64,000 bases of DNA from Vicinamibacterales bacterium (lineage in GTDB: Bacteria > Acidobacteriota > Vicinamibacteria > Vicinamibacterales > SCN-69-37). Below the pieces are notes generated by a model, which was not told the origin of the DNA, searched no databases, and saw only the letters and a program-made list of their open reading frames with translations. Shown piece by piece: positions 1,151 to 17,963 of the stretch. The position numbers were made by a program, and so were the translations under genes. The DNA lies in NCBI GenBank assembly GCA_039925145.1, contig JBDSZL010000071.1, positions 29,376 through 93,375 on the forward strand. The letters are read 5' to 3'. Each line of letters begins with the position of its first letter. The first letter of the stretch is position 1.

Positions 1151-1660
1151 TCAGGCCATCGGCTCGTCGGCCGAGGCTCCGTAGATCGCCGGGACCTTCG
1201 AGCCGAGGCCCCGCAGATAGGCGGCCAGCTGTCCGCGATGATGAATCGAGTGGTTGTTCGCAAAACCGAGCATGGCCGCGGCCGGCAACTGCAGCCGGCC
1301 AAAGAAATCGACGGATCGTGCCAGCTCGTCGCCAGACGCGGCGTGCAGCGACTGGATCCTGGCTCGCAGCTCTTTCTTGTAGAAGGTCACCACGTCGCTC
1401 ACCGACTTGAACATCGCCGTCTGTCGCGCCGCCCCGTCGGGATCCCATTCGAACTTGCCCCGAGAGATGCTGTCGAGGAACCACACATCGGCTGTGGCCA
1501 TATGCGTCGCGAGATCCCACGCAGAGCGGGATTTCTCATCCGGCTTGTAATCGCGATTCTCGTCCTTGACGGCGGCGAGGACCTTGCACGTGGCATCGAA
1601 CTCGCGCTCCATCAATGCGAGGAACTGCTCGGCGACGATCTTGGCGTGCTCGGGGGTCAT
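1151..1660 (-). CDS. DinB-family (damage-inducible, four-helix-bundle metalloenzyme-like) protein
   Basis: 169-aa ORF. ..WDLATHMA..FL.. and the C-terminal ..NHSIHHRGQLAAYLR.. are the conserved His-containing DinB motifs. Confidence 0.8.
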   Translation of the reverse strand: MTPEHAKIVAEQFLALMEREFDATCKVLAAVKDENRDYKPDEKSRSAWDLATHMATADVWFLDSISRGKFEWDPDGAARQTAMFKSVSDVVTFYKKELRARIQSLHAASGDELARSVDFFGRLQLPAAAMLGFANNHSIHHRGQLAAYLRGLGSKVPAIYGASADEPMA

Positions 1661-1824
1661 GAGATCTCCTATGAAACCGGGACGTCCGCAAAGTTCAATT
1701 AGCGTGTATCAGTCGAGGGCTGCGTTCGCGCCGTGTCTGGCAACTCGCAACAGTCATTCTGCCGCAGCGCGTCCACGAAGCATAATGTTGTCGGTCGCGA
1801 TCGGCCAACAGGAGGTTTCGCGCA

Positions 1825-7179: not shown

Positions 7180-8253
7180 CTATAGTCCTTTCGGGGGCCG
7201 GCTCCTCCGTTCACCGTCGAGCAGCTGCGCCTTCACGTCCGTGCCCCACCGGTAACCGCGCAAATCGCCCTTAATCCCCACGACACGATGACACGGCACC
7301 AACAGAGACAACGGGTTGGTGGCGCAAGCCCGCGCCACGGCCCTTACGGCAGACGCAGACCCGATGGCGCGTGCAACTTCTGAGTACGTGCGCGTCTGGC
7401 CGGCCGGAATTTCCGTCAGCGCCCGCCACACGCGCCACTGAAATGCCGTGCCTCGAATATCCACGGGCACATCGGCTGAGAGCGGGCGCGCTTCGGCGAT
7501 GGTGCTCGCCGCAGCCGCGAGCGCACGAAGCTCCGGATTTGGCGCAGCATCGATTGTGGCCCGCGGAAACTCCCGACAAAGTGTCTCGCGCAGCTCCGAG
7601 ACGGTTGTCCCGATCGCGACAAAACAGACTCCATGTGTCGTCGCAGCGACCATCACGCGTCCCGCCCGTGACGACGTCGTGGCCCAGCTGATCGCTGCGC
7701 CCGCGCCACCTTTCGCGAACGTGGCCGGGGTTACGCCTGGCAGTCTGAACGCCTCGTAAGCCCGACTCGACGATCCGTACCCTGCCGCATAGACCGCTTG
7801 CGTCACTGACTCCCCCGCTCTGAGATGCTGGCGAAAACGGCGCTGACGACACGCCGCGACGAAGTCGCGCGGCGACACACCGAGCAGCGCGCGAAAGGCG
7901 CGCTGCATCTGTGCCGTGCTCCCGCCTGCCGCGGTCGTCATGCGCGACACGGTCCAGCGCTGATCTGGAGCGCTTCCAACCGCACGGCACACACGGCACA
8001 CAAGTGCAGCCCGAGGGCTCGCTGGGACACGGTCCGCGTTCGGGTCACACCGGCGGCACGACCGGTAGCCCGCGGACTGAGCCGCCTTCCAGGATGCGAA
8101 GAAGTCCACCCTGTCGCGCGACGGCTTGCGACTGGGGCACGAGGGCCGACAATAGATCCCGGTAGATCGAACGGCATAGACAAACAGCCCATCGGCCGTA
8201 GGGTCGCGGTTGAGCACCGCGGTCCAGAGCGGGCTTGTCGAATCTGGAGGCAT
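7180..8253 (-). CDS. ada: Bifunctional Ada: methylphosphotriester-DNA methyltransferase/AraC-type activator plus O6-methylguanine-DNA methyltransferase
   Basis: The N-terminal Zn cluster is ..FVYAVRSTGIYCRPSCPSR..CRRC... An AraC helix-turn-helix sits in the middle. The C-terminal ..VPCHRVVG.. is the methyl-acceptor Cys motif. Confidence 0.88.
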   Translation of the reverse strand: MPPDSTSPLWTAVLNRDPTADGLFVYAVRSTGIYCRPSCPSRKPSRDRVDFFASWKAAQSAGYRSCRRCDPNADRVPASPRAALVCRVCRAVGSAPDQRWTVSRMTTAAGGSTAQMQRAFRALLGVSPRDFVAACRQRRFRQHLRAGESVTQAVYAAGYGSSSRAYEAFRLPGVTPATFAKGGAGAAISWATTSSRAGRVMVAATTHGVCFVAIGTTVSELRETLCREFPRATIDAAPNPELRALAAAASTIAEARPLSADVPVDIRGTAFQWRVWRALTEIPAGQTRTYSEVARAIGSASAVRAVARACATNPLSLLVPCHRVVGIKGDLRGYRWGTDVKAQLLDGERRSRPPKGL

Positions 8254-8330: not shown

Positions 8331-9338
8331 TCAGACGTCGGCGAGCAGTCTTGTGGCGAGATCGACGTAGAGGTCAACCGCCGCCTGCAGTTCGGCCACA
8401 GACACGTATTCGTCTGCCGTGTGGGCCAGCGTCACCGAGCCTGGTCCCACGAGGAGCGGCGTGCCCCAGTTGGTGAGAAACGGGATGTCCGTCGTGAAGT
8501 TGAAGACGGCTGTCTCGAGCCCAGCGAGCGTCTTCAGCGCCACAGGCGGCACCACCAGCACCTCTTCGAGCTCCGCGTCATCGCCGACGGCCTCGACGAT
8601 CAGATCCCGGAGCGGCACATGATGCCCCACCGTTCGCAACATCACCTCGGCCTGCGCCTTCGCGGGAATGACGTTTGGCGCCACACCGCCACTGATCATG
8701 CCGACGGTGTAATACGTCACGCCGAGCTCGGAATCGTGCGGCCAGTCAATGCGCCGCAGAGCCACGAGCGCGTCGATCAGTTTCTCGATGGCCGAGGCGC
8801 CGAGCTCCGGCTGGCTCGAGTGCGCGGCCCTGCCGTACGAACGTAGACGCACCCGGTAGATCCCCCGGGTCGCACGCGCGAGCCGGTTGTCGGTCGGCTC
8901 GCCATTGATGAGGTACTTCGCCCCTTGGGCGATGTTATTCGCGAGCTTCGCGCCGTCGCTGCCACGTTCTTCGCCGACGACAAACAGCAGAGCCAGACGC
9001 CGCTCGCCGGCGGCGCGCAGGCGCTCGGCGGCCGCAATCTGCGCCACGGCCGTGCCCTTCGCGTCGCATGATCCGCGGCCGTGGATCCGACCGTTCTCCT
9101 CCCTGCTCGGGAAGAAGGGCGGCACACAATCAAAGTGCGTGGAGAAGGTCACGCGCGGGCCCTCGCCCAACGTCGCAAGGACGTTGAAGCGGCCGTCCGT
9201 GACAGGCTGTTCGATGACCTGATAGCCCAACGCCCTCAGGCATGCGGCAAGCCACGCGCCCGCCTCGCCTTCGCGGCCGGTTGTCGAATCTATGTCGACG
9301 AGCTCTCGAGTGAGCCGAATCTGTGTGAGAAGGTCCAC
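8331..9338 (-). CDS. M20-family metallohydrolase (ArgE/DapE-like deacylase); by context a candidate N-acyl-diaminopimelate deacylase
   Basis: ..THFDCVPP.., ..HGRGSCDAKG.. and ..GEERGSDG.. are M20 metal ligand motifs. It lies directly downstream of dapA on the same strand. Confidence 0.75.
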   Translation of the reverse strand: MDLLTQIRLTRELVDIDSTTGREGEAGAWLAACLRALGYQVIEQPVTDGRFNVLATLGEGPRVTFSTHFDCVPPFFPSREENGRIHGRGSCDAKGTAVAQIAAAERLRAAGERRLALLFVVGEERGSDGAKLANNIAQGAKYLINGEPTDNRLARATRGIYRVRLRSYGRAAHSSQPELGASAIEKLIDALVALRRIDWPHDSELGVTYYTVGMISGGVAPNVIPAKAQAEVMLRTVGHHVPLRDLIVEAVGDDAELEEVLVVPPVALKTLAGLETAVFNFTTDIPFLTNWGTPLLVGPGSVTLAHTADEYVSVAELQAAVDLYVDLATRLLADV

Positions 9339-9411
9339 GCCTCGGCTGCTCCTGGTGATGGCTCGCCTGCTCGCCGCGGCCGAGCCTCTGCAGTATCGCG
9401 GACGCTCTTTG

Positions 9412-10317
9412 TCAGGCGCGAGCTTCTATGACGACCGGCATCCCGTAGTCCTTCAAGGTCGCCACGATCTTTTCCTGTGAGGCCGCGCTGGGCGATGTCA
9501 TCGGCAGCCGATAGATCTCTTCGCACAAACCCATGGCAGCCATCGCGAACTTCACGGGAATGGGGTTCGCCTCGACGAAATTCATCTGCATCAGCGGCAG
9601 CATCTTGTGATGCCACCGTCGTGCGCTTTCATAATCGCCATGCTCGGCGGCTTCGATGAGCTCGACCATCTCGGCCGGCACCTCGTTCGACGCGACCGAG
9701 ATCAGCCCACGGCCGCCGATCGCCATCAACGGCAGAGCCAGCGCATCGTCGCCTGACAGGACGATGAACTCGGGCGGCATCAGACGGCAGATCTCCGTCA
9801 TCTGCGTCATGTTGCCGGAGGCTTCTTTGACGCCGATGATGTTGGGGATTTGCGCGAGACGGGCCAGCGTCGAGGGCTCGACGTTGCAGCCCGTCCGGCC
9901 TGGCACGTTGTAGACCATGATGGGCAGCTTGGTGGTATCGGCGATGGCGCGGTAGTGCTGGTAGAGACCGTCTTGCGTCGGCCTGTTGTAGTAGGGCGTC
10001 ACCGAGAGGATGCCATGCGCCCCAACGTCCTGAAACGCGCGCACCGCCTGAATGACCTCGCGCGTGTCGTACCCACCCGCGCCCGCCATCACCATGGCGT
10101 GTCCTTCGACTTCGTCGACGACCAGCTCGACGAGCCGGACGCGCTCGCTCATCGACAGCGTCGGCGCCTCGCCGGTGGTGCCACACGGCACGAGGAAATG
10201 AACGCCGGCTTCGACCTGTCGGGCGGCGAGACGCCGCACGGCACCTTCGTCGAGGGCGCCGCCTGCGGTGAACGGCGTAATTAACGCGGTGCCCAGCCCG
10301 GTGAATGAAACTCGCAT
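9412..10317 (-). CDS. dapA: 4-hydroxy-tetrahydrodipicolinate synthase
   Basis: ..GTALITPF..VPCGTTGEAPTLS..YNVPGRTG.. is present, and the protein is 301 aa. Confidence 0.93.
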   Translation of the reverse strand: MRVSFTGLGTALITPFTAGGALDEGAVRRLAARQVEAGVHFLVPCGTTGEAPTLSMSERVRLVELVVDEVEGHAMVMAGAGGYDTREVIQAVRAFQDVGAHGILSVTPYYNRPTQDGLYQHYRAIADTTKLPIMVYNVPGRTGCNVEPSTLARLAQIPNIIGVKEASGNMTQMTEICRLMPPEFIVLSGDDALALPLMAIGGRGLISVASNEVPAEMVELIEAAEHGDYESARRWHHKMLPLMQMNFVEANPIPVKFAMAAMGLCEEIYRLPMTSPSAASQEKIVATLKDYGMPVVIEARA

Positions 10318-10331
10318 GTCAGCTCCCGTCG

Positions 10332-11012
10332 TCAGCCACTAATCATGTCACGCATCGAGAACCACCCGCGGCGGCCCTTGAGCCACTTGGCGGCTTCAAG
10401 CGCGCCGTGGGCGAAGACGGCCCTGTCGCGAACCGTGTGCGTGAGATTCACGGTTTCGGCCGGGCCGTCGAATCCGACCACGTGCGTGCCCGGGATGTAG
10501 CCGGCGCGCGTCGACGACATGTCGATCGGGCGCGTATAGCCCTGCTCGGTCATGGCGCGTTGCAGCATCAGGGCCGTGCCGGACGGCGCGTCTTTCTTCG
10601 CCGCATGGTGCGCCTCGTGAATCCACGCACCGATGCCGTCGAGCCCCGCGAACCGACGCGCCGCTTCCTCGACGACGACCGCAAACACGTGCATGCCGAG
10701 CGAGAAATTTGCGGCGGCGAGGACACCTAGGCCGGCGGCGTCTGCGACGTTGCGCAGTGCGGGTTCCTCTGCCTGCCAGCCCGTGGTGCCGATCACGACG
10801 TTCACGCGGCGGGCGGCAAGGGCACTGACATTGGCCGCGACTGCGTCCGGCTGCGAGAAATCGATCGCCACATCTACGGCGCCCGCATGGCTGAGCGCAT
10901 CGGCGACGGGTGTATCGACCTCGGCGATCGCGGCAATCTCGCAGCCGTGGGAAGGCGCGAGTTCTTCGATGAGGCGGCCCATGCGCCCGTGGCCGATGAG
11001 CAGCAGTCTCAC
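10332..11012 (-). CDS. dapB: 4-hydroxy-tetrahydrodipicolinate reductase (short form)
   Basis: The N-terminal Rossmann motif is MRLLLIGHGRMGR... ..EAHHAAKKDAPSGTA.. is the DapB signature. The GTG start overlaps the lysC stop (GTGA at 11009-11012). Confidence 0.88.
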   Translation of the reverse strand: MRLLLIGHGRMGRLIEELAPSHGCEIAAIAEVDTPVADALSHAGAVDVAIDFSQPDAVAANVSALAARRVNVVIGTTGWQAEEPALRNVADAAGLGVLAAANFSLGMHVFAVVVEEAARRFAGLDGIGAWIHEAHHAAKKDAPSGTALMLQRAMTEQGYTRPIDMSSTRAGYIPGTHVVGFDGPAETVNLTHTVRDRAVFAHGALEAAKWLKGRRGWFSMRDMISG

Positions 11013-12400
11013 GCCGGCACCCCGAAGAATCGCTCGTGAACCTTGGTCAGGGCAGACTGAAGATCCGCTTCACGAATCACGAGCGTGATGTTCCGGCGGG
11101 CCGCGGCCTGCGACACCATGCGGATGGGAATGCCGCCGAGCGACTCCAGGAGCTGACTCACGAAGGTCTGGTCGCGTTGCAAGCCGTCGCCTACCGCGCA
11201 CAGGATCGCCATTTTGTCTTCGCGTGTCACTTCCGCCACCTCCCGCAGTTCCTCGGCAATCTCCGATAACCGGCGGGCGTCATCAACGGTGACCGACACG
11301 CTCACCTCGGACGTGGTGACCACGTCGACCGCCGTGCGGTGCTGTTCGAATGCAGCAAAGATGCGTGCCAGGAATCCGTGCGCCATCAACATCCGTGTGG
11401 ACGTGATGTCGACAACAGTCACGCCCTGTTTCGACGCAACGGCCGTCAGCGGCCGACCGGTCGACGGGCGATCGCGCGTAATCAATGTACCGCGCGCGTC
11501 CTGCGTCCGCTTGGAGTTGAGGATCCGAACGGGAATGTTCTCGGCCACGGCCGGGAGGATGGTCGCCGGATGCAGCACCTTGGCACCGAAGTACGCGAGC
11601 TCAGACGCTTCACCGAACGACAGATGAGGCACGACCTGCACATTCTTGATGATTCGGGGATCGGCTGTCAGCATCCCATCGACATCCGTCCAGATTTGAA
11701 TCTCCGACGCGCCGAGACACGCACCGACGATGGCCGCCGAGTAGTCGGACCCGCCGCGCCCCAGCGTGGTGGTGACGCCCTGACGATTTGCTCCGACGAA
11801 GCCGCCAAGCACCGGAATCCGACGCTCGACGAGCAGCGGGTCGACATGCGCGGTGAGGGCCACTTTGGTCTCGTCCATGAGCGGCGGCGCCGCCGTGTGT
11901 TCGTCGCCTGTGACAATGGCCAGGCGTGCATCGACCCAGCCGGCTGCCAGCCCTTGCGCCGAAAGCGCCGCTGCGACGATGCGGCTGCTGAGAATTTCAC
12001 CGCAGGCCGCAATAGTATCGAGCCAACGGGGCGTCACTTCCTTGAGCACACCGAGCGCACCCACGAGTCGCTCCAGCGCATCGAACTCCTGCCCGATGAA
12101 TGCGTCGACAAGGGGACGGTCTGGGGTGTCGCCGATGACGCCCGCAACCTCGAGATGCCGGGCTCGAAGCCGCTTCAGGTTCTCGAGTGCCGCGTCAGAC
12201 CGGCCCTCGGCCGCGTCGGCGGCAGCCTTGAGGAATTTATCGGTGGCGCCACCGAGAGCGGAGACGACGACGACCGGCCCGCGCCAGTCCTGACGCTCGG
12301 GCTGAATCGCCGACTGCTTCGCCGCGCGCACTATCGCAATCAATCGCTCGATCGCGGCCTGATCGGCGACCGACGTGCCGCCGAATTTCATCACAATCAT
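11009..12400 (-). CDS. lysC: Aspartate kinase (with C-terminal ACT domains)
   Basis: MIVMKFGGTSVAD.. and ..GRGGSDYSAA.. are present, and the tail has tandem ACT-like domains. Confidence 0.92.
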   Translation of the reverse strand: MIVMKFGGTSVADQAAIERLIAIVRAAKQSAIQPERQDWRGPVVVVSALGGATDKFLKAAADAAEGRSDAALENLKRLRARHLEVAGVIGDTPDRPLVDAFIGQEFDALERLVGALGVLKEVTPRWLDTIAACGEILSSRIVAAALSAQGLAAGWVDARLAIVTGDEHTAAPPLMDETKVALTAHVDPLLVERRIPVLGGFVGANRQGVTTTLGRGGSDYSAAIVGACLGASEIQIWTDVDGMLTADPRIIKNVQVVPHLSFGEASELAYFGAKVLHPATILPAVAENIPVRILNSKRTQDARGTLITRDRPSTGRPLTAVASKQGVTVVDITSTRMLMAHGFLARIFAAFEQHRTAVDVVTTSEVSVSVTVDDARRLSEIAEELREVAEVTREDKMAILCAVGDGLQRDQTFVSQLLESLGGIPIRMVSQAAARRNITLVIREADLQSALTKVHERFFGVPA

Positions 12401-12419
12401 AAAGACACCTGACGGGCGG

Positions 12420-12454
12420 ACGGTTCACGACTTACGACTTACGACTTACGGTTC
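12420..12454. repeat. Heptanucleotide tandem repeat (ACGGTTC ACGACTT x3 ACGGTTC) in the asd-lysC intergenic spacer
   Basis: I read this directly from the sequence: five contiguous 7-nt units. It shares the 10-mer CTTACGGTTC with the heptad array at 29055-29103, which is in the opposite orientation. Confidence 0.85.
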
Positions 12455-12472
12455 AAGATTGAGCTGAGGCTG

Positions 12473-13516
12473 CTAGAGCAGGCCCTCGGCTTTCATCAAC
12501 TCGGCGTTGAGCACCGACGCGCCGGCGGCGCCGCGGATCGTATTGTGGCCGAGCGCCACGAACTTGTGACTGAGCACCGGACATACGCGGACGCGGCCGA
12601 TGGAGATGGTCATCCCCTGACCCAGGTCGGCATCGAGTCGCGGCTGCGGACGGTTGATTTCGGACATGACGTTGAGCGCCGGAACGGGGGCGGTCGGCAG
12701 CTGCAGATCCTGAGGTCGGCCCTTGAACGCCCGCATCGCGTCGGCCACCGCCTCGACGGAGGGACGGGCGGCGAGGTCAACCGCCACGGTCATCGTGTGC
12801 CCGTCGATCACGGGCACCCGGTTGACCTGAGCACTCACCACGGCATCGAGCGGCGCGCTGCTGTCGTCGGCGCCCAAGATCTTGAGGGTCTCGGTCTCGA
12901 TCTTCTCCTCTTCGCCCCCGCCGATGTACGGCACGATGTTGCCGAGGATATCGAGTGACGGCACGCCGGGATACCCGGCTCCCGACACCGCCTGCATGGT
13001 CGTCACGACCACGGTGCGGATGCGGAACTGTCGCAAGGGCGCCAGCGCCATCGCCAGCACCACTGTGGCGCAGTTCGGGTTGGTGACCACGACGCCCTTC
13101 CAGCCCTTCGCCTGACGCTGTCGATCGAGGAGGGCGAGATGAGCGGCATTGACCTCCGGAATCAGGAGCGGCACGAGCGGGTCCATGCGATGGGTGCGGG
13201 CGTTGCTCAGCACGACGTGGCCCGCGGCCGCGAATTGCTGCTCGAGCTCGTCGGCCGCCTTGGCATCGAGCGCCGAGAACACCACCTTGGGCCCACGGCC
13301 CGGCACACATCCCTCCACTTTCATGTCACGTATGAAGTCGGGCATGGGCGTGGCGAGGCGCCATGGAGCGGCCTCGGCATACGCCTTGCCCTCGGACCGC
13401 TCGCTCGCGGCAAGCCAGGTCACCTGAAACCATGGATGCTGAGCCAGGCGCAGAATGAACTGCTGGCCGACCATCCCTGTCGCGCCAAGAACACCAACGT
13501 CGATTTTCTGAGGCAT
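12473..13516 (-). CDS. asd: Aspartate-semialdehyde dehydrogenase
   Basis: MPQKIDVGVLGATGMVGQQF.. is the N-terminal motif. ..NPNCATV.. contains the active-site Cys. The protein is 347 aa. Confidence 0.92.
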   Translation of the reverse strand: MPQKIDVGVLGATGMVGQQFILRLAQHPWFQVTWLAASERSEGKAYAEAAPWRLATPMPDFIRDMKVEGCVPGRGPKVVFSALDAKAADELEQQFAAAGHVVLSNARTHRMDPLVPLLIPEVNAAHLALLDRQRQAKGWKGVVVTNPNCATVVLAMALAPLRQFRIRTVVVTTMQAVSGAGYPGVPSLDILGNIVPYIGGGEEEKIETETLKILGADDSSAPLDAVVSAQVNRVPVIDGHTMTVAVDLAARPSVEAVADAMRAFKGRPQDLQLPTAPVPALNVMSEINRPQPRLDADLGQGMTISIGRVRVCPVLSHKFVALGHNTIRGAAGASVLNAELMKAEGLL

Positions 13517-13593
13517 ATAAGTCCACGGCCGGTCGTTGACAGCGCTCGCCAGAGCACCCGGTTTCCCTGGCGGCCGAACACCTCTCCAGACAC

Positions 13594-13627
13594 AAAAAAA
13601 CCCGCCGTGCGAAGCGCATCGGCGGGT
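13594..13627 (-). terminator. Rho-independent terminator
   Basis: On the minus strand: CCCGCCGAUGCG-CUU-CGCACGGCGGG (11 bp, one bulged A) followed by UUUUUUU. The U-tract corresponds to the plus-strand A-run 13594-13600. Confidence 0.75.
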
Positions 13628-13761
13628 TCATCGGGGCCGTTCGAGGCCTAATTTCTGGCCAGTCTCAGACGCGCACCATCGCCGACACCAATGCGGGTGT
13701 GCCCCGCTTATTGTCGGACCGCTTTCGCGCGATGACGGATGCGCTTCGCACAGACATGACC
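13594..13761 (-). ncRNA. Candidate structured leader RNA / sRNA upstream of asd (unclassified)
   Basis: It is bounded by a promoter-like element and the terminator. It contains a perfect 14-bp long-range helix (13738-13751 with 13607-13620), an extending 6-bp helix (13730-13735 with 13628-13633), a GNRA hairpin (13720-13729), and a nested stem-loop (13682-13717). Confidence 0.4.
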
Positions 13762-13767
13762 GGAGGA

Positions 13768-13796
13768 AGCATAACTGTCGACGTGGCTCGCGTCAA
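13768..13796 (-). promoter_or_regulatory. Candidate sigma70-type promoter (TTGACG - 17 nt - TATGCT)
   Basis: On the minus strand the -35 is at 13796-13791 and the -10 at 13773-13768. This rests on the motif match only. Confidence 0.35.
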
Positions 13797-13834
13797 GCGA
13801 GCCGCGCGACGAGCGAGCCGCGCGACGAGATTTA

Positions 13835-13984
13835 GGAGACCGGGTCTCCACCGGGAGGGGACGGAGACTAGGAGACCGGGTCTCCGCTGTCATGGAACGG
13901 AGATTAGGAGACCGGGTCTCCGCTGCGAGGGGACGGAGACTAGGAGACCGGGTCTCCGCTGTCATGGAACGGAGACCCGGTCTC
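13835..13984. repeat. REP-like array: 4 copies of the palindrome GGAGACCGGGTCTCC at 36-nt spacing plus a terminal variant GGAGACCCGGTCTC
   Basis: Copies start at 13835, 13871, 13907 and 13943, and the variant starts at 13971. The 21-nt spacers alternate between two related sequences. The array ends 5 nt from the stop codon of the hydrolase gene. Confidence 0.9.
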
Positions 13985-13989
13985 TTGGA

Positions 13990-15156
13990 TCACTGATATC
14001 CCAACCGGACGGTGCCTGAACGCGCGCGGCTTACCGTGCCCTCGGCGAGCCACTCGCGCGAGGCGGCGAAGAGCGCCGCGTGCTGCCGCTCCCAGAGCGC
14101 GTTGTGCGAGGAGCAGCCCAGATCGACCAGCACCTTCTGCGGCGAGCCGGCGTCTTCGTAGAGCTCGCGGACGCGTGCCGGCGGTACCTGCACATCGTGC
14201 GCTGGGGAGACGACCAGCAGCGGCATGCGAAGCCGCCCGGCGACCTCCCGATTCCAGCCCCATGTGGCTGTCTGCGGCGCGCGACGCACGCCCGAGCCCC
14301 AGGTGGCTCCGACCGGATCGGACTCGAGCATGGCTGTCCAGACCGACTCGCGCGCGCCCATATCGAACTGATTGGCGCACCCAAGCTGCCGGTCCCAGTT
14401 GGCGTCGAACTCCGCGCGCGATTGCGTGTTGAACGCCACACCGGTGGGCAGCGCCGCCGGCGGGCCCGGCGCCGCGTCGCGCGTGTAAGCCGGCGACAGA
14501 AGCACGAGCTTATGAATCTTGTCGGCATGCGCGGCCGCATAGCCGCCAGTCCGCGGTCCACCCAACGACCAACCCACCAGGCTGACCCGGTCCACGTGAC
14601 GCAGCGCTCGCAGATAATCCACAACGGCGCCGATGTCATTCCAGTCGGAGGCGATCGTCGTCACCGGCTGGGCGTAAGTCGCCGCACACGGCGCGCCGAT
14701 CAGAACGGGAATGAACGTCGCCTGCTGGGCGGGCGACAGATTGCACGGGTCGTTCATCGGGGTCGGGCGTGTAGACCTGCCGTACCCGCTGACATCCATC
14801 GAGAAGGTGTCGAATCCCCCGCCGGCCAGAGCAGCCATCCAGCTGTAGTCCTGGTAGGCCACGTCGAAGGCCACTTCTGCGGGCGTGCCCGCGCCGTGTA
14901 CGAACAGGACGACGCGATCCGCGAGGTTCACGCCAGGGCGGATGGTTTCGGGCAACGCGCGCTCCCGAACGTACATCTGCGCGGCCTGCCCCACCATGAC
15001 AGGCACGGTGGACATCACCTTGACGTAGTGGTTCAGCGACAGCACGCTGCTTTTGTCGTTCTGCGGCACGCGCGCGGCTGTCCCGTTTTGCGCGGCGAGC
15101 GCGACGGCAATCGTCACCGCGCCGGTAGCGACACCTAACCTGAGAATGCTGACCAT
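13990..15156 (-). CDS. Secreted alpha/beta-fold hydrolase
   Basis: The signal peptide is MVSILRLGVATGAVTIAVALAAQ... The nucleophile elbow is ..LVGWSLGG... ..VLFVHGAG.. is the oxyanion region. Confidence 0.8.
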   Translation of the reverse strand: MVSILRLGVATGAVTIAVALAAQNGTAARVPQNDKSSVLSLNHYVKVMSTVPVMVGQAAQMYVRERALPETIRPGVNLADRVVLFVHGAGTPAEVAFDVAYQDYSWMAALAGGGFDTFSMDVSGYGRSTRPTPMNDPCNLSPAQQATFIPVLIGAPCAATYAQPVTTIASDWNDIGAVVDYLRALRHVDRVSLVGWSLGGPRTGGYAAAHADKIHKLVLLSPAYTRDAAPGPPAALPTGVAFNTQSRAEFDANWDRQLGCANQFDMGARESVWTAMLESDPVGATWGSGVRRAPQTATWGWNREVAGRLRMPLLVVSPAHDVQVPPARVRELYEDAGSPQKVLVDLGCSSHNALWERQHAALFAASREWLAEGTVSRARSGTVRLGYQ

Positions 15157-15187
15157 GGTGCCGGCATTCTACCGCTGGTCGATATCA

Positions 15188-15301
15188 GGAGACCGGGTCT
15201 CCGCTGTGCGATCACGGAGAGTAGGAGACCGGGTCTCCGGTGTACCAGAACGGAGGCTAGGAGACCGGGTCTCCGGTGTACCAGAGCGGAGACCCGGTCT
15301 C
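15188..15301. repeat. REP-like array: 3 copies of GGAGACCGGGTCTCC at 36-nt spacing plus the terminal variant GGAGACCCGGTCTC
   Basis: Copies start at 15188, 15224 and 15260, and the variant starts at 15288. Geometry and orientation match the 13835-13984 array. It ends 1 nt from the stop codon at 15303. Confidence 0.9.
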
Positions 15302-15302
15302 T

Positions 15303-17963
15303 TTAGAAGCTGACGTTCAGGTTGAACGTCGTGCGGCGGACGCCATCCGATTGCGTCGGCTGCAGGAACAGTTTCGATGTCATCACGCCCGTGTAGCCGG
15401 TGTAGTTGGCGTGATTTGTCAGATTGGAGATCTGCACGCCGATGTTCAGCTGGTAGCGCGGCGCGGCCTGCGACGCGGCGGGATTGACGACGAGCTGCCC
15501 GCCGCTGGACGTAATTTGCACACCGCCGCCAGACATCACCTTGCGTGTGCCGAGCGAGAACGAGTACGAGAAGAAGCCGAAGCTGTTGAACTGGCCCGCG
15601 GTTCGGGCGGAGTTGCGACCCACGCCCGCCGGTCGGTCGTTGAAGATCAGGTCGCCGTTGTCGTCGATGCCCGTCCGAATTGTCAGCGGAGTGGCCGAGT
15701 TCCCGTTGAGGCTCACCTGAGCGTTGAAGTTGCGCAAAAAGCTGGTGCTGAGCGACAGGCCCCCTCTGTGCCGCACGTCAAATGCCGCCGGCCCCCACTC
15801 GAGTCCCAGATCGTTCGTGGCCGGGGTGGCAAAGGCGCCATCCGTGTTGTTCTGGTTGCGGCCGGTGCCGTAGTTCACCCCGAGGAACAACCCGCGTTTG
15901 AAATCTAGGAGCTTGCCGGTGCCGCGAGGACCGGGGATGGCGCTCGAGAGGCTGACCGACAGATTGGCATTCAGCGAATGCACCCGGGAATTGCCGTCGG
16001 AGACCGATCGAATGACGTTGGCAAAGGCTGGATCGGGACGCACACCGTTCACCGGCGCGTTCAGGTTCTGGCCGACGAGCTGTCCGATGCCGCGGGTATA
16101 GGAATACGTCACGCCGCTCGAGATGCGCTTGCTCAGCTGTTGATTGACTCCGGCGCTGAGGCGTGTCGTGCGGCCCATGATCAGATCTGAGCCGAGCACG
16201 TACCGGTTGGTGGGCGGAGCGGCGGCTGACCCGGGATCCGGAAACGACGGGTTGATGATGTTGATCTCCTGCTGTCGGAAACCGTCCACCCGGATGGTCT
16301 GCTCGTAGGTATTGGTGGTGAGCCAATCATGGAAGATACCGGCGCTCGCGCGCAGTGTTGTCTTGCCGCTCTGGCCAGGCGACCAGGTGACTCCGAAGCG
16401 GGGACCGAAGTTCATCCGATCGGGAAGGTGCGTCTGGACTTCGTAACGGAGGCCCGGCGTGATCGTCAGCCCTTTGCGGACCTTGATGTCATCGAGGATG
16501 TAGATGCCAGCCTGGACGTTCCAGTAGTTGACGTTCGGATCGCCGATACGGCGCGTGTAGCTGCGCGGTCGGCCCGCCTGAAACGCCTCGACGCTCTCGA
16601 AGGTGTAGGTGCCGAGATAATTATTGGAACTGTCGCTGCGGTAGTGGCCCCCATCAATGAGGACGCCGGTCCGCACTGAATGTGTGCCGCGGACGTAGTC
16701 GAGATCCGATCCGATCTGGAACGCACGATTGTGGCTGCCACCTCGCGTCTGTGCCCCGCCAGTGGTGACGCTGTCAGGGATCACTACCGTGGGCGCCTCG
16801 AACACAGACGTCGACTCGTTGTTGCCAATGTTCAGCAGCACGCGCGTATTGGTGAAAAACCGGCGCCCAAGCGGACCGAGTTCCTGCGCGCGAATGATCG
16901 TCGACGTGTTGCGTGTCGAAAATGCCCGCTGACTGTCGTTGTTGCCGCCGAGCCCAAGGTTCTCGGTGTGTCCGCTCGATCGATTGACGCCGAGGCGAAT
17001 GGTCTGGTCGCGCGTCAGCGCGTAGTCAATCAATCCCGAGAAGCCGACGTTCTTCGACGGCTGCTGCACGTTGGACAGTGTTCTGACGATGCCGTCGGCA
17101 TTGGAAGACACCTGTACGGGCGTCTGAAATGCGTCCGTGCCGACGAATGACAGCTGGAAAGAGCTGCGTTGCTTGATCAACGTGCCACCGACCGCAAGGC
17201 GGAGGTTGGTGTTGCGGCTCGCGGGGCGCAAGCCCACCAGCGGGTTCTTCCCGTCCGTCGACGAGTCGTAGAAGGTAGTACCGATGCCACCGCGCAACGG
17301 CCCGATGCCCGGCTGCGTGACGATCTCGATCGACAAACCGCCGGCAAAGTGATTCTCGGCGGAAAACTGGTCGCGCGAGATCCGGATGGACTTGATCATC
17401 GACTTCGGGGGCAGATCCTGGCCCTCGAAACTATCGACGCGAATGACCGCGTCGCCTCCGGCCATCTGCTGCAACTGCCGGCGCATCTCTTCGGGGTCGT
17501 CCGAGAGCGCGTCGATTTGCTCACGCGTGAGCGCCGATCCAAACGCGGCGCCCCGATCGGAGGCCGCCTCCTTGCGATCGCGGCCGACCGTGAGCGACTC
17601 CTCTACGCCGGCGGGAACGAGCACGAGCGTCTGCCGGTTGTCACCCGCACGCACGCGCAGGTCACGGACGACGCCTTTGGTGAACCCGGGGAACTCGACC
17701 GACACCGAGTAGCGTCCGGGCAGCAGGTTCGCGATGGTCGCCACGCCAGTCTCGACGCTCTTCACTGGGTCGAGCGTCGCTTCCCGTGTCGCCGGCTCGA
17801 GACCGGCGACCGCCACCGCGGCGCCCGGAATCACACCGCCGCTCGGGTCGGTGACCGTCACCAGAAGGCGTCCGCGTTGCGCGGTCTGTGCGCGCGCACC
17901 GAGCGGCGAAAGAACCGCTCCCAGCAGGACAATGACGGCAATAACCAACCGGCAACCACGCAT
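15303..17963 (-). CDS. TonB-dependent-receptor-like outer-membrane beta-barrel with N-terminal carboxypeptidase-regulatory-like (CarboxypepD_reg) domain
   Basis: After the signal peptide comes ..RLLVTVTDPSGGVIPGAAVAV..GRYSVSVEFPGF.., which is the CarboxypepD_reg domain. A long beta-strand-rich body ends in ..TFNLNVSF (terminal aromatic). I placed the start at the ATG at 17963, which has GGAG 7 nt upstream. Confidence 0.8.
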   Translation of the reverse strand: MRGCRLVIAVIVLLGAVLSPLGARAQTAQRGRLLVTVTDPSGGVIPGAAVAVAGLEPATREATLDPVKSVETGVATIANLLPGRYSVSVEFPGFTKGVVRDLRVRAGDNRQTLVLVPAGVEESLTVGRDRKEAASDRGAAFGSALTREQIDALSDDPEEMRRQLQQMAGGDAVIRVDSFEGQDLPPKSMIKSIRISRDQFSAENHFAGGLSIEIVTQPGIGPLRGGIGTTFYDSSTDGKNPLVGLRPASRNTNLRLAVGGTLIKQRSSFQLSFVGTDAFQTPVQVSSNADGIVRTLSNVQQPSKNVGFSGLIDYALTRDQTIRLGVNRSSGHTENLGLGGNNDSQRAFSTRNTSTIIRAQELGPLGRRFFTNTRVLLNIGNNESTSVFEAPTVVIPDSVTTGGAQTRGGSHNRAFQIGSDLDYVRGTHSVRTGVLIDGGHYRSDSSNNYLGTYTFESVEAFQAGRPRSYTRRIGDPNVNYWNVQAGIYILDDIKVRKGLTITPGLRYEVQTHLPDRMNFGPRFGVTWSPGQSGKTTLRASAGIFHDWLTTNTYEQTIRVDGFRQQEINIINPSFPDPGSAAAPPTNRYVLGSDLIMGRTTRLSAGVNQQLSKRISSGVTYSYTRGIGQLVGQNLNAPVNGVRPDPAFANVIRSVSDGNSRVHSLNANLSVSLSSAIPGPRGTGKLLDFKRGLFLGVNYGTGRNQNNTDGAFATPATNDLGLEWGPAAFDVRHRGGLSLSTSFLRNFNAQVSLNGNSATPLTIRTGIDDNGDLIFNDRPAGVGRNSARTAGQFNSFGFFSYSFSLGTRKVMSGGGVQITSSGGQLVVNPAASQAAPRYQLNIGVQISNLTNHANYTGYTGVMTSKLFLQPTQSDGVRRTTFNLNVSF

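Follow-up and report, generated by a model that had tools for sequence, protein, structure and literature searches.

What controls the lysine operon asd-lysC-dapB-dapA in the Vicinamibacterales? The question is raised by an element at 13594-13796, upstream of asd on the minus strand of a 64,000-nucleotide (nt) stretch of DNA from a Vicinamibacterales bacterium (contig JBDSZL010000071.1, positions 29,376 to 93,375, hereafter the window). Lysine biosynthesis is a textbook case of riboswitch control, by the lysine riboswitch (L-box), and the Acidobacteriota are an abundant soil phylum that is genetically almost unexplored. The initial annotation of the window proposed a riboswitch-like leader or a small RNA (sRNA) at this place. 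The analysis presented here, which is computational throughout, leads to another answer: the element is probably a ribosome-mediated (leader-peptide) transcription attenuator, and the signal that it senses is most likely lysine, through the charging of tRNA-Lys. What such an attenuator has at the level of sequence was found, namely a short open reading frame (ORF) enriched in Lys codons, an intrinsic terminator before the first gene, a 2:3 antiterminator and a 1:2 anti-antiterminator.

All features of the leader are on the minus strand and were either read directly from the sequence or located by tools. In the order of transcription they are:

13796-13791, minus strand: -35 hexamer TTGACG (direct reading and promoter scan)
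13773-13768, minus strand: -10 hexamer TATGCT, 17 nt from the -35 hexamer (promoter scan; TATACT in most relatives)
13757-13755 (ATG) to 13667-13665 (TGA), minus strand: leader ORF of 30 codons plus stop, peptide MSVRSASVIARKRSDNKRGTPALVSAMVRV (homologous ORFs in relatives)
13751-13738, minus strand: 5' arm of a long-range helix, GUGCGAAGCGCAUC, leader codons 3-7 (14 nt, 100% complementary to 13620-13607)
13735-13730, minus strand: extension of the long-range helix, UCAUCG (partner CGAUGA, 13633-13628)
13729-13720, minus strand: hairpin CGC-GAAA-GCG of the GNRA type (direct reading)
13724-13722, minus strand: Lys codon K12 (AAG) in the context CGA-AAG-CGG, in the loop of this hairpin (in-frame motif conservation)
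13717-13703, minus strand: segment 1, the 5' strands of the anti-antiterminator, CCGACA (13717-13712) and GCGGG (13707-13703) (subfamily pairing and covariation)
13709-13707, minus strand: Lys codon K17 (AAG) in the context AAU-AAG-CGG (in-frame motif conservation)
13697-13682, minus strand: segment 2, with CGCAUUGGUG (13695-13686) as partner of segment 3 and with CCCGC (13697-13693) and UGUCGG (13687-13682), which overlap it, as partners of segment 1
13633-13607, minus strand: 3' arms of the long-range helix, CGAUGA (13633-13628) and GAUGCGCUUCGCAC (13620-13607) (direct reading and repeat search)
13626-13601, minus strand: intrinsic terminator hairpin CCCGCCG-A-UGCG-CUU-CGCA-CGGCGGG, segments 3 and 4 (-19.0 kcal/mol)
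13624-13615, minus strand: segment 3, CGCCGAUGCG, the 5' arm of the terminator and antiterminator partner of segment 2 (10 bp in the window)
13600-13594, minus strand: U7 tract of the terminator (direct reading)

The promoter is the sole sigma70-like site in 12000-15500, a region for which shuffled sequences predict 0.3 sites, and a TTGAC-like -35 hexamer is present at the equivalent position in the loci L001, L002, L003, L021, L202-L204 and L206. The asd start codon (13516) lies 77 nt past the end of the U tract. The 176-nt leader has a minimum free energy of -85.4 kcal/mol (z = -3.58) and none of 200 shuffles folded equally well. Since its features are all present and go beyond chance, the observation reported in the initial annotation is confirmed, including the position and spacing of the promoter and the strong terminator followed by seven uridines. 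The conserved 30-codon ORF was missing from that description. A direct repeat of GCGAGCCGCGCGAC-like units (13786-13825) overlaps the -35 region of the promoter and may be a binding site or a local duplication.

The upstream regions of 80 asd loci from Vicinamibacterales and other Acidobacteriota were compared, together with five closer relatives of the window with an Asd identity of 84-88%. Terminators were located by a fold-based finder, as a cruder exact-stem finder overlooked bulged stems. A strong terminator was found shortly upstream of asd in 54 of the 80 loci, and all 54, like the five closer relatives, have a common layout in which a -10 box (usually TATACT) is followed by a start codon, an ORF, a stop codon, a spacer, the terminator and asd. 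The ORF has 19-39 codons with the conserved core R-K-[RHWC]-x(2-5)-x-K-R, and its stop codon precedes the terminator in every case, with a spacer of 24-55 nt. The terminators of the 54 loci range from -14 to -23 kcal/mol and 95.4% of the aligned cells of the stem pair, with one CG/UA covarying pair. Leaders of one group (group B) are carried by Vicinamibacter and Luteitalea. The gene upstream of the leader differs between loci, which indicates that the element goes with asd and not with the preceding gene. In this respect the earlier proposal of a promoter-proximal, terminator-based attenuator of asd-lysC-dapB-dapA stands, being conserved upstream of asd whatever the upstream gene.

Two further features were seen in these regions. 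In a subset of Vicinamibacterales (L005, L006, L007, L013 and L019) asd starts with GTG, and another conserved sequence (…GTAAGATCGTCAGA…CCGTG…) is found about 60 nt upstream of it in place of the leader peptide and terminator. Short lineage-specific tandem repeats occur around the attenuator, in the gap between terminator and asd or upstream of the promoter, in L004, L011, L012, L015, L024, L026 and L072; repeat units of this kind in many metagenome-assembled genomes (MAGs) include GGCCCCA, CAGGCAG, GAACCCCA and GGCCTAT.

In the window the leader ATG is placed 10 nt after the -10 box and has no Shine-Dalgarno sequence. An in-frame ATG at 13771 was considered as the start and rejected, as it overlaps the -10 hexamer. 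The distance from the -10 box to the start codon is 7-18 nt, mostly 9-13 nt, in 50 leaders, a spread somewhat biased by the preference of the detection script for about 11 nt, although the boxes are nonetheless visible in the raw sequences. A start codon so near the -10 box leaves no room for a Shine-Dalgarno sequence, which implies that the mRNA would be leaderless or would have a very short leader.

A conserved property of the ORF is the frame of its Lys codons. In a frame-agnostic count over the leaders of the relatives, 112 of 116 AAG[CT][GA] motifs were in frame with the start codon; the distances from motif to motif were divisible by 3 in 65 of 75 cases, and the insertions between motifs in L054, L061 and L065 are of whole codons. 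Lys accounts for 9.7% of the residues in the 54 leaders; in the asd genes of these loci taken together with the operon of the window the figure is 2.6% (p = 5e-39). All leaders except one have 2-5 Lys. The Lys is invariant in both motifs while its neighbours vary: the residue that follows the first Lys is R, H, W, C or Y, and the one that precedes the second is N, F, A, L, I or R. In its 3' half the ORF is kept as RNA and not as peptide, since L018 and L020 use different frames for GCGCAUUGGCGG. At the codon level the surroundings of the regulatory Lys are less free: the Arg codon on its 5' side is CGA in 65 of 76 cases, against 5.7% of the Arg codons in asd genes (p = 6e-69), CGG predominates on its 3' side, and Arg amounts to 18% of the leader residues.

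The paired Lys-motif pattern is also specific for this place, having 37 matches within 420 nt upstream of asd and 4 in the remaining ~1 Mb on both strands. The asd leader is its only occurrence in the window, and no second copy was found across the 80 loci save the more distant leader of L032. A metagenome scan with CGAAAGCGN{6,21}CGAAAGCGG for leaders of other lysine genes returned at least 120 matches, and those listed were all unrelated basic-repeat or coding sequences that did not have the layout of leader plus terminator.

The pairing of the segments was predicted with a ribosome masked at the last Lys codon and the RNA folded as far as the terminator loop. A long helix between segment 2 and segment 3 is predicted in this state in every subfamily examined, and in the window it joins CGCAUUGGUG (13695-13686) with CGCCGAUGCG (13624-13615). 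Relative to dinucleotide shuffles the 2:3 duplex has a mean z of -2.3, with p<=0.05 in 33 of the 54 leaders. Moreover a terminator arm from another subfamily is a poorer partner for segment 2 than the arm of the same leader, the difference being 4.06 kcal/mol (Wilcoxon p = 9.5e-9). In MAFFT alignments of the window subfamily 85.6-89.9% of the 2:3 cells pair, against 23-53% in slid controls. Compensatory changes are present as well: where L018 has GCGCAUUGGCGG/CCGCUGAUGCGC, L022 has CGCAGCGGCGG/CCGCUGCUGCG, with U-A changed to G-C.

As long as segment 3 has yet to be transcribed, the models pair segment 2 with upstream sequence, at a median probability of 0.81. Its upstream partners in the window belong to the inner stems CCGACA/UGUCGG and GCGGG/CCCGC, which had been pointed out before and proved to be conserved and covarying. 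In the subfamily 78.9% of the cells of these 1:2 stems pair, against 37-50% with the partner slid; the covariation score is 0.263 versus 0.177, none of 500 shuffles scored as high, and compensatory AU/GC changes are found at two pairs. Segment 2 starts at a median of about 10 nt past the last Lys codon, and about 15 nt separate its end from the stop codon, so that a ribosome stalled at Lys would leave it free and an advancing one would cover it. Stalling at K12 or K17 would place segment 1 of the window under the ribosome. In equilibrium folding with a ribosome mask, the terminator has a probability of 0.60 when the A site is at the first Lys and of 0.81 at later codons (p = 7e-6; 42 of 54 leaders), and the sequestration of segment 3 is 0.83 at the first Lys and 0.67 later (p = 5e-9). 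In these models the segments have the classical 1:2, 2:3 and 3:4 arrangement.

The role of key competitor of the terminator had been given by the initial annotation to another helix, the long-range one. The 14-nt perfect complement and its UCAUCG/CGAUGA extension do exist, and the duplex with its extension reaches -37.8 kcal/mol, with z = -2.7 to -4.5 against shuffles in the window. As a conserved switch this helix was nevertheless rejected, as it is confined to the window genome. Across the 54 leaders the pairing of the 5' part of the ORF with the terminator has a mean z of +0.25, with p<=0.05 in 2 of 54, as many as expected by chance. In the alignment of the subfamily the 14-bp helix has 58.7% of its cells paired, the row of the window itself included, and the UCAUCG extension 54.7%; neither is maintained. 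Perfect complementarity runs over 14 nt in the window and stops at 5 nt in all five of the closest relatives, among which L203 has an identical terminator. In the comparison of asd upstream regions the inner stems covaried and the long-range helix was not conserved, the conserved competitor being 13695-13686 with 13624-13615. The sequences 13751-13731 and 13730-13710 are identical at 15 of 22 positions (p<0.0005), and to judge from this similarity the 5' arm of the long-range helix (codons 3-9) derives from a copy of the Lys-motif unit that has decayed. The CGC-GAAA-GCG hairpin fared similarly: it is present in the window, but its stem is lost in the alignment in L001, L002, L010, L204 and L206, and it was discarded as a conserved structural element.

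How could these parts work together? Transcription would start a few nt upstream of the ATG at 13757, giving a leaderless or very short-leader mRNA, and a ribosome would translate the 30-codon ORF while the RNA polymerase heads for the terminator. If Lys-tRNA is plentiful, the ribosome would run over segment 2 (13695-13686) toward the stop codon (13667-13665); with segment 2 covered nothing would hold the 5' arm of the terminator, and the hairpin at 13626-13601 with its U7 tract would form and end transcription about 77 nt before asd. If Lys-tRNA is scarce, the ribosome would stall with K12 or K17 in its A site and its footprint over segment 1 (CCGACA and GCGGG). Segment 2, being freed, would then pair with the emerging 5' arm of the terminator (13624-13615), the terminator would be blocked and the polymerase would read into asd-lysC-dapB-dapA and the DapE-like gene. 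When there is no translation, segments 1 and 2 would pair through the inner stems and the terminator would form. Translation of the leader ORF, Lys-tRNA as the signal and the kinetics of the process are what we infer here.

Computation establishes the parts of this leader, their conservation, the reading frame, the Lys enrichment and the family-level covariation of the 2:3 and 1:2 helices. The choice of lysine as the signal also has the logic of the pathway on its side, as the operon consists of asd, a lysC-like gene, dapB, dapA and a DapE-like gene, and asd stands behind a lysine riboswitch in other Acidobacteriota. Several points have to be set against the mechanism. The Lys codons are just 2-5, dispersed and not in a run, and Arg is more enriched than Lys, so that the specificity could be broader than lysine; at 18% of the residues, a broader or a different specificity is conceivable. 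The fixed CGA-AAG-CGG context reveals selection at the level of the nucleotide or codon, for which the sensing of Lys alone gives no reason. The mechanism also takes it for granted that Vicinamibacterales can initiate translation on leaderless mRNA. In 44 of the 54 leaders the Lys-stall footprint takes in the upstream partners of segment 2, a count with a high baseline given that 74% of the upstream nt are covered. The equilibrium contrasts are moderate, as expected from a kinetic device, and in several leaders the terminator, which is GC-rich, dominates at all ribosome positions. Finally, in the predicted folds of the window the 14-bp helix keeps the terminator from forming even when the ribosome has reached the stop codon, an outcome opposite to the one that the mechanism requires. 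Because of this antitermination at the stop codon and the dominance of GC-rich terminators, the ribosome-mask folding is counted as supporting evidence only. The 14-bp helix, neither conserved nor of the right sign, is placed outside the core mechanism, and it is either a recent lineage-specific elaboration or a by-product of duplication.

The alternative that survives best keeps the ribosome-dependent design and changes the signal, which could be slow decoding of the rare CGA codon or the supply of Arg-tRNA, general translation capacity, or an arrest by the basic R-K-R nascent peptide, possibly in response to a metabolite. Nascent-peptide arrest modules that respond to a metabolite are known in TnaC and SpeFL. 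Both the abundance of Arg and the strong selection of CGA beside each Lys codon can be explained in this manner, and the R-K-R core is conserved beyond the need of a bare Lys codon. Moreover CGA is a slowly decoded codon, and it de-attenuates the his leader of Salmonella (PMC4046918). However, the regulated genes are those of the lysine/diaminopimelate (DAP) branch, the equivalent operons in other Acidobacteriota are under a lysine riboswitch, and Lys is the sole invariant residue of both motifs whose flanks vary. We regard a signal other than lysine as improbable.

The slow decoding of CGA makes a built-in brake a reasonable idea also for a lysine-sensing attenuator. The CGA-AAG-CGG (R-K-R) units might be a dedicated stalling module, made of a rare-codon brake and a basic nascent chain or acting by a codon-pair or metabolite-dependent arrest, that gives an attenuator of two codons the sensitivity of long codon runs. 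The decayed third copy in the window genome would then have been recruited as an extra antiterminator strand of 14+6 bp against the terminator, and the whole would be a distinct sub-type of attenuation that evolves by duplication of the sensing unit. This is speculation and unlikely to hold.

Could the element after all be a riboswitch, or a leader bound by a protein? In that case the CGAAAGCGG repeats and the multi-helix fold would form an aptamer or a protein site, the ligand would choose between the long-range helix and the terminator, and the ORF would be incidental. The conservation of nucleotides does exceed that of amino acids, as seen in the CGA before Lys (65/76 vs 5.7%), the fold of the leader is better than that of shuffles (z = -3.58), and riboswitches are used at asd in related lineages. 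The motifs are nevertheless frame-keeping (112/116) with whole-codon insertions and deletions between them, the -10 box is followed by the start codon at a short and constant spacing, and in all leaders the ORF closes ahead of the terminator. In addition conservation is poor between the motifs and on either side of them, the stem of the GAAA hairpin is not kept, and the switching helix that was proposed is not conserved.

The search with Rfam points in the same direction. With Rfam 15 at the gathering score no match was obtained in the whole window, and at E<=10 the region 13450-14000 gave no Lysine, asd motif or T-box match, having weak, unrelated or wrong-strand matches only (for instance Bp2_287 with 23 bits, the cut-off being 70). 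The Lysine model (RF00168) had no match in the window at its gathering score of 30 bits or at E<=10, yet it finds L059 and L077, the positive control, with ~92 bits. The asd RNA motif (RF01732) had no match in the window at any threshold, nor did the T-box leader (RF00230), which is defined by the Stem I specifier loop and the T-box sequence. As these models were tested on the window and did not match, the leader is outside the L-box, asd-motif and T-box families, in agreement with the first reading, which had not recognised an L-box. The conserved core being a translated-looking short ORF with in-frame Lys codons, the sensor is more likely a ribosome than an aptamer, and the riboswitch or sRNA interpretation is not supported; we consider a riboswitch or protein-binding leader very improbable.

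That the element is an independent small gene or sRNA (a transcript of ~165 nt with a basic 30-aa peptide, or an sRNA acting in trans) or the plain terminator of the upstream hydrolase gene hardly deserves credence, for although it has its own promoter and a strong terminator, and leader RNAs or peptides of attenuators can act in trans elsewhere in bacteria, as reported for peTrpL (PMC7298713), it always accompanies asd while the upstream gene varies by locus, its peptide is not conserved outside the Lys motifs and is in part conserved as RNA only, and the conserved complementarity between the 3' part of the ORF and the terminator arm would be purposeless in a free-standing gene.

As a leader-peptide attenuator, the asd leader resembles trpL, hisL, thrL, leuL, pheL and ilvL of the Proteobacteria in having codons for the end product in a short leader ORF and 1:2, 2:3 and 3:4 segments, with a terminator just before the first gene and the position of the ribosome choosing between antiterminator and terminator. 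Classical attenuators of this type are known for Trp, His, Phe, Leu, Thr and Ile/Val. The asd leader differs from them in its amino acid, Lys, whose 2-5 dispersed codons are usually framed by Arg (CGA-AAG-CGG) and form no run, in an ORF that has no Shine-Dalgarno sequence and starts ~10 nt after the -10 box, and in its Acidobacteriota host. It has no sequence similarity to any of the leader families in Rfam. With the L-box it shares the target, lysine operons that contain asd, often the use of a terminator and presumably the physiological signal; however, the L-box is an aptamer of ~180 nt with a five-way junction that binds free lysine, whereas the sensor of the asd leader would be a ribosome reading the charging of tRNA-Lys. 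The asd RNA motif of lactic acid bacteria (RF01732) is similar only in its gene context upstream of asd and is a structured RNA without leader peptide.

The idea of a leaderless short ORF has a parallel in mycobacteria, where a leaderless poly-Cys ORF is the first cistron of a biosynthetic operon; a ribosome that stalls on it changes the structure of the mRNA further downstream, and the operon is thereby switched on (Canestrari et al., bioRxiv 10.1101/834739). The start codon of the asd leader is mostly 9-13 nt past the -10 box. The mycobacterial ORF works with a run of Cys codons and the unmasking of a ribosome-binding site, whereas dispersed Lys codons and an intrinsic terminator are found in the asd leader.

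No lysine-specific leader-peptide attenuator was found in a literature search, whose coverage is incomplete and in which absence is not proof. A survey of Actinobacteria from 2005 found no conserved RNA element upstream of lysine operons and gave the L-box as the element that serves lysine regulation in other species (PMC1262725). As the searchable literature is incomplete, the novelty of a lysine-specific leader-peptide attenuator is likely and not certain. If the mechanism is true, lysine can be added to the list of amino acids that are sensed by a stalled ribosome, and the Acidobacteriota provide a case of attenuation in which the leader ORF is apparently leaderless. One phylum would then control the same operon by any of three RNA devices that can replace one another: L-box, S-box or leader peptide. 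The fixed CGA-AAG-CGG context should be a natural test case for the tuning of an attenuator by codon context. In practice, annotators should record the short ORF and refrain from listing the region among candidate novel riboswitches.

The genes behind the leader are:

12473-13516, minus strand: asd, aspartate-semialdehyde dehydrogenase, the first structural gene (TIGR00978, 415 bits)
11009-12400, minus strand: lysC-like aspartokinase (best model lysine-sensitive aspartokinase 3)
10332-11012, minus strand: dapB (profile match)
9412-10317, minus strand: dapA (profile match)
8331-9338, minus strand: DapE/ArgE-family deacylase, the last gene of the operon span 8331-12400 (profile match)

The Asd of the window is 100% identical to a protein of a Vicinamibacterales MAG. 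In other lineages asd is found with other RNA regulators. A lysine riboswitch (RF00168) is present in L059 (1767-1960) and L077 (1685-1859) with 91.7 and 92.1 bits, respectively, and is followed by a DapE/ArgE-family gene and then directly by asd; the leader peptide is absent in those lineages. The asd-lysC operon of Solibacter usitatus has been given as regulated by a lysine riboswitch (PMC5584792). The Lys-codon leader of the Vicinamibacterales, which occupies the same position, fits what may be, by analogy, a swap of one lysine sensor for another. In further Acidobacteriota an S-adenosylmethionine (SAM) riboswitch (RF00162) is present in L078 (750-849) and L079 (532-631), upstream of a gene preceding asd that resembles Cys/Met-metabolism genes, a name based on its C-terminal translation alone. 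L078 also has a match to a group II intron domain (1487-1704, minus strand, 179 bits).

Directly downstream of the lysine operon of the window, on the minus strand at 7180-8253, there is a gene for an Ada-like bifunctional regulator / O6-methylguanine-DNA methyltransferase. On the other side of the leader, two arrays of a 36-nt tandem repeat, at 13829-13991 (~4.5 copies) and 15188-15302 (~3.5 copies), flank an alpha/beta-hydrolase-like ORF (13990-15156, minus strand) on both sides. The repeat unit holds the palindrome GGAGACCGGGTCTCC, and 16 matches were obtained where 0.02 are expected. These arrays could be an element similar to repetitive extragenic palindromes (REP) or to miniature inverted-repeat transposable elements (MITE), or an operator array.

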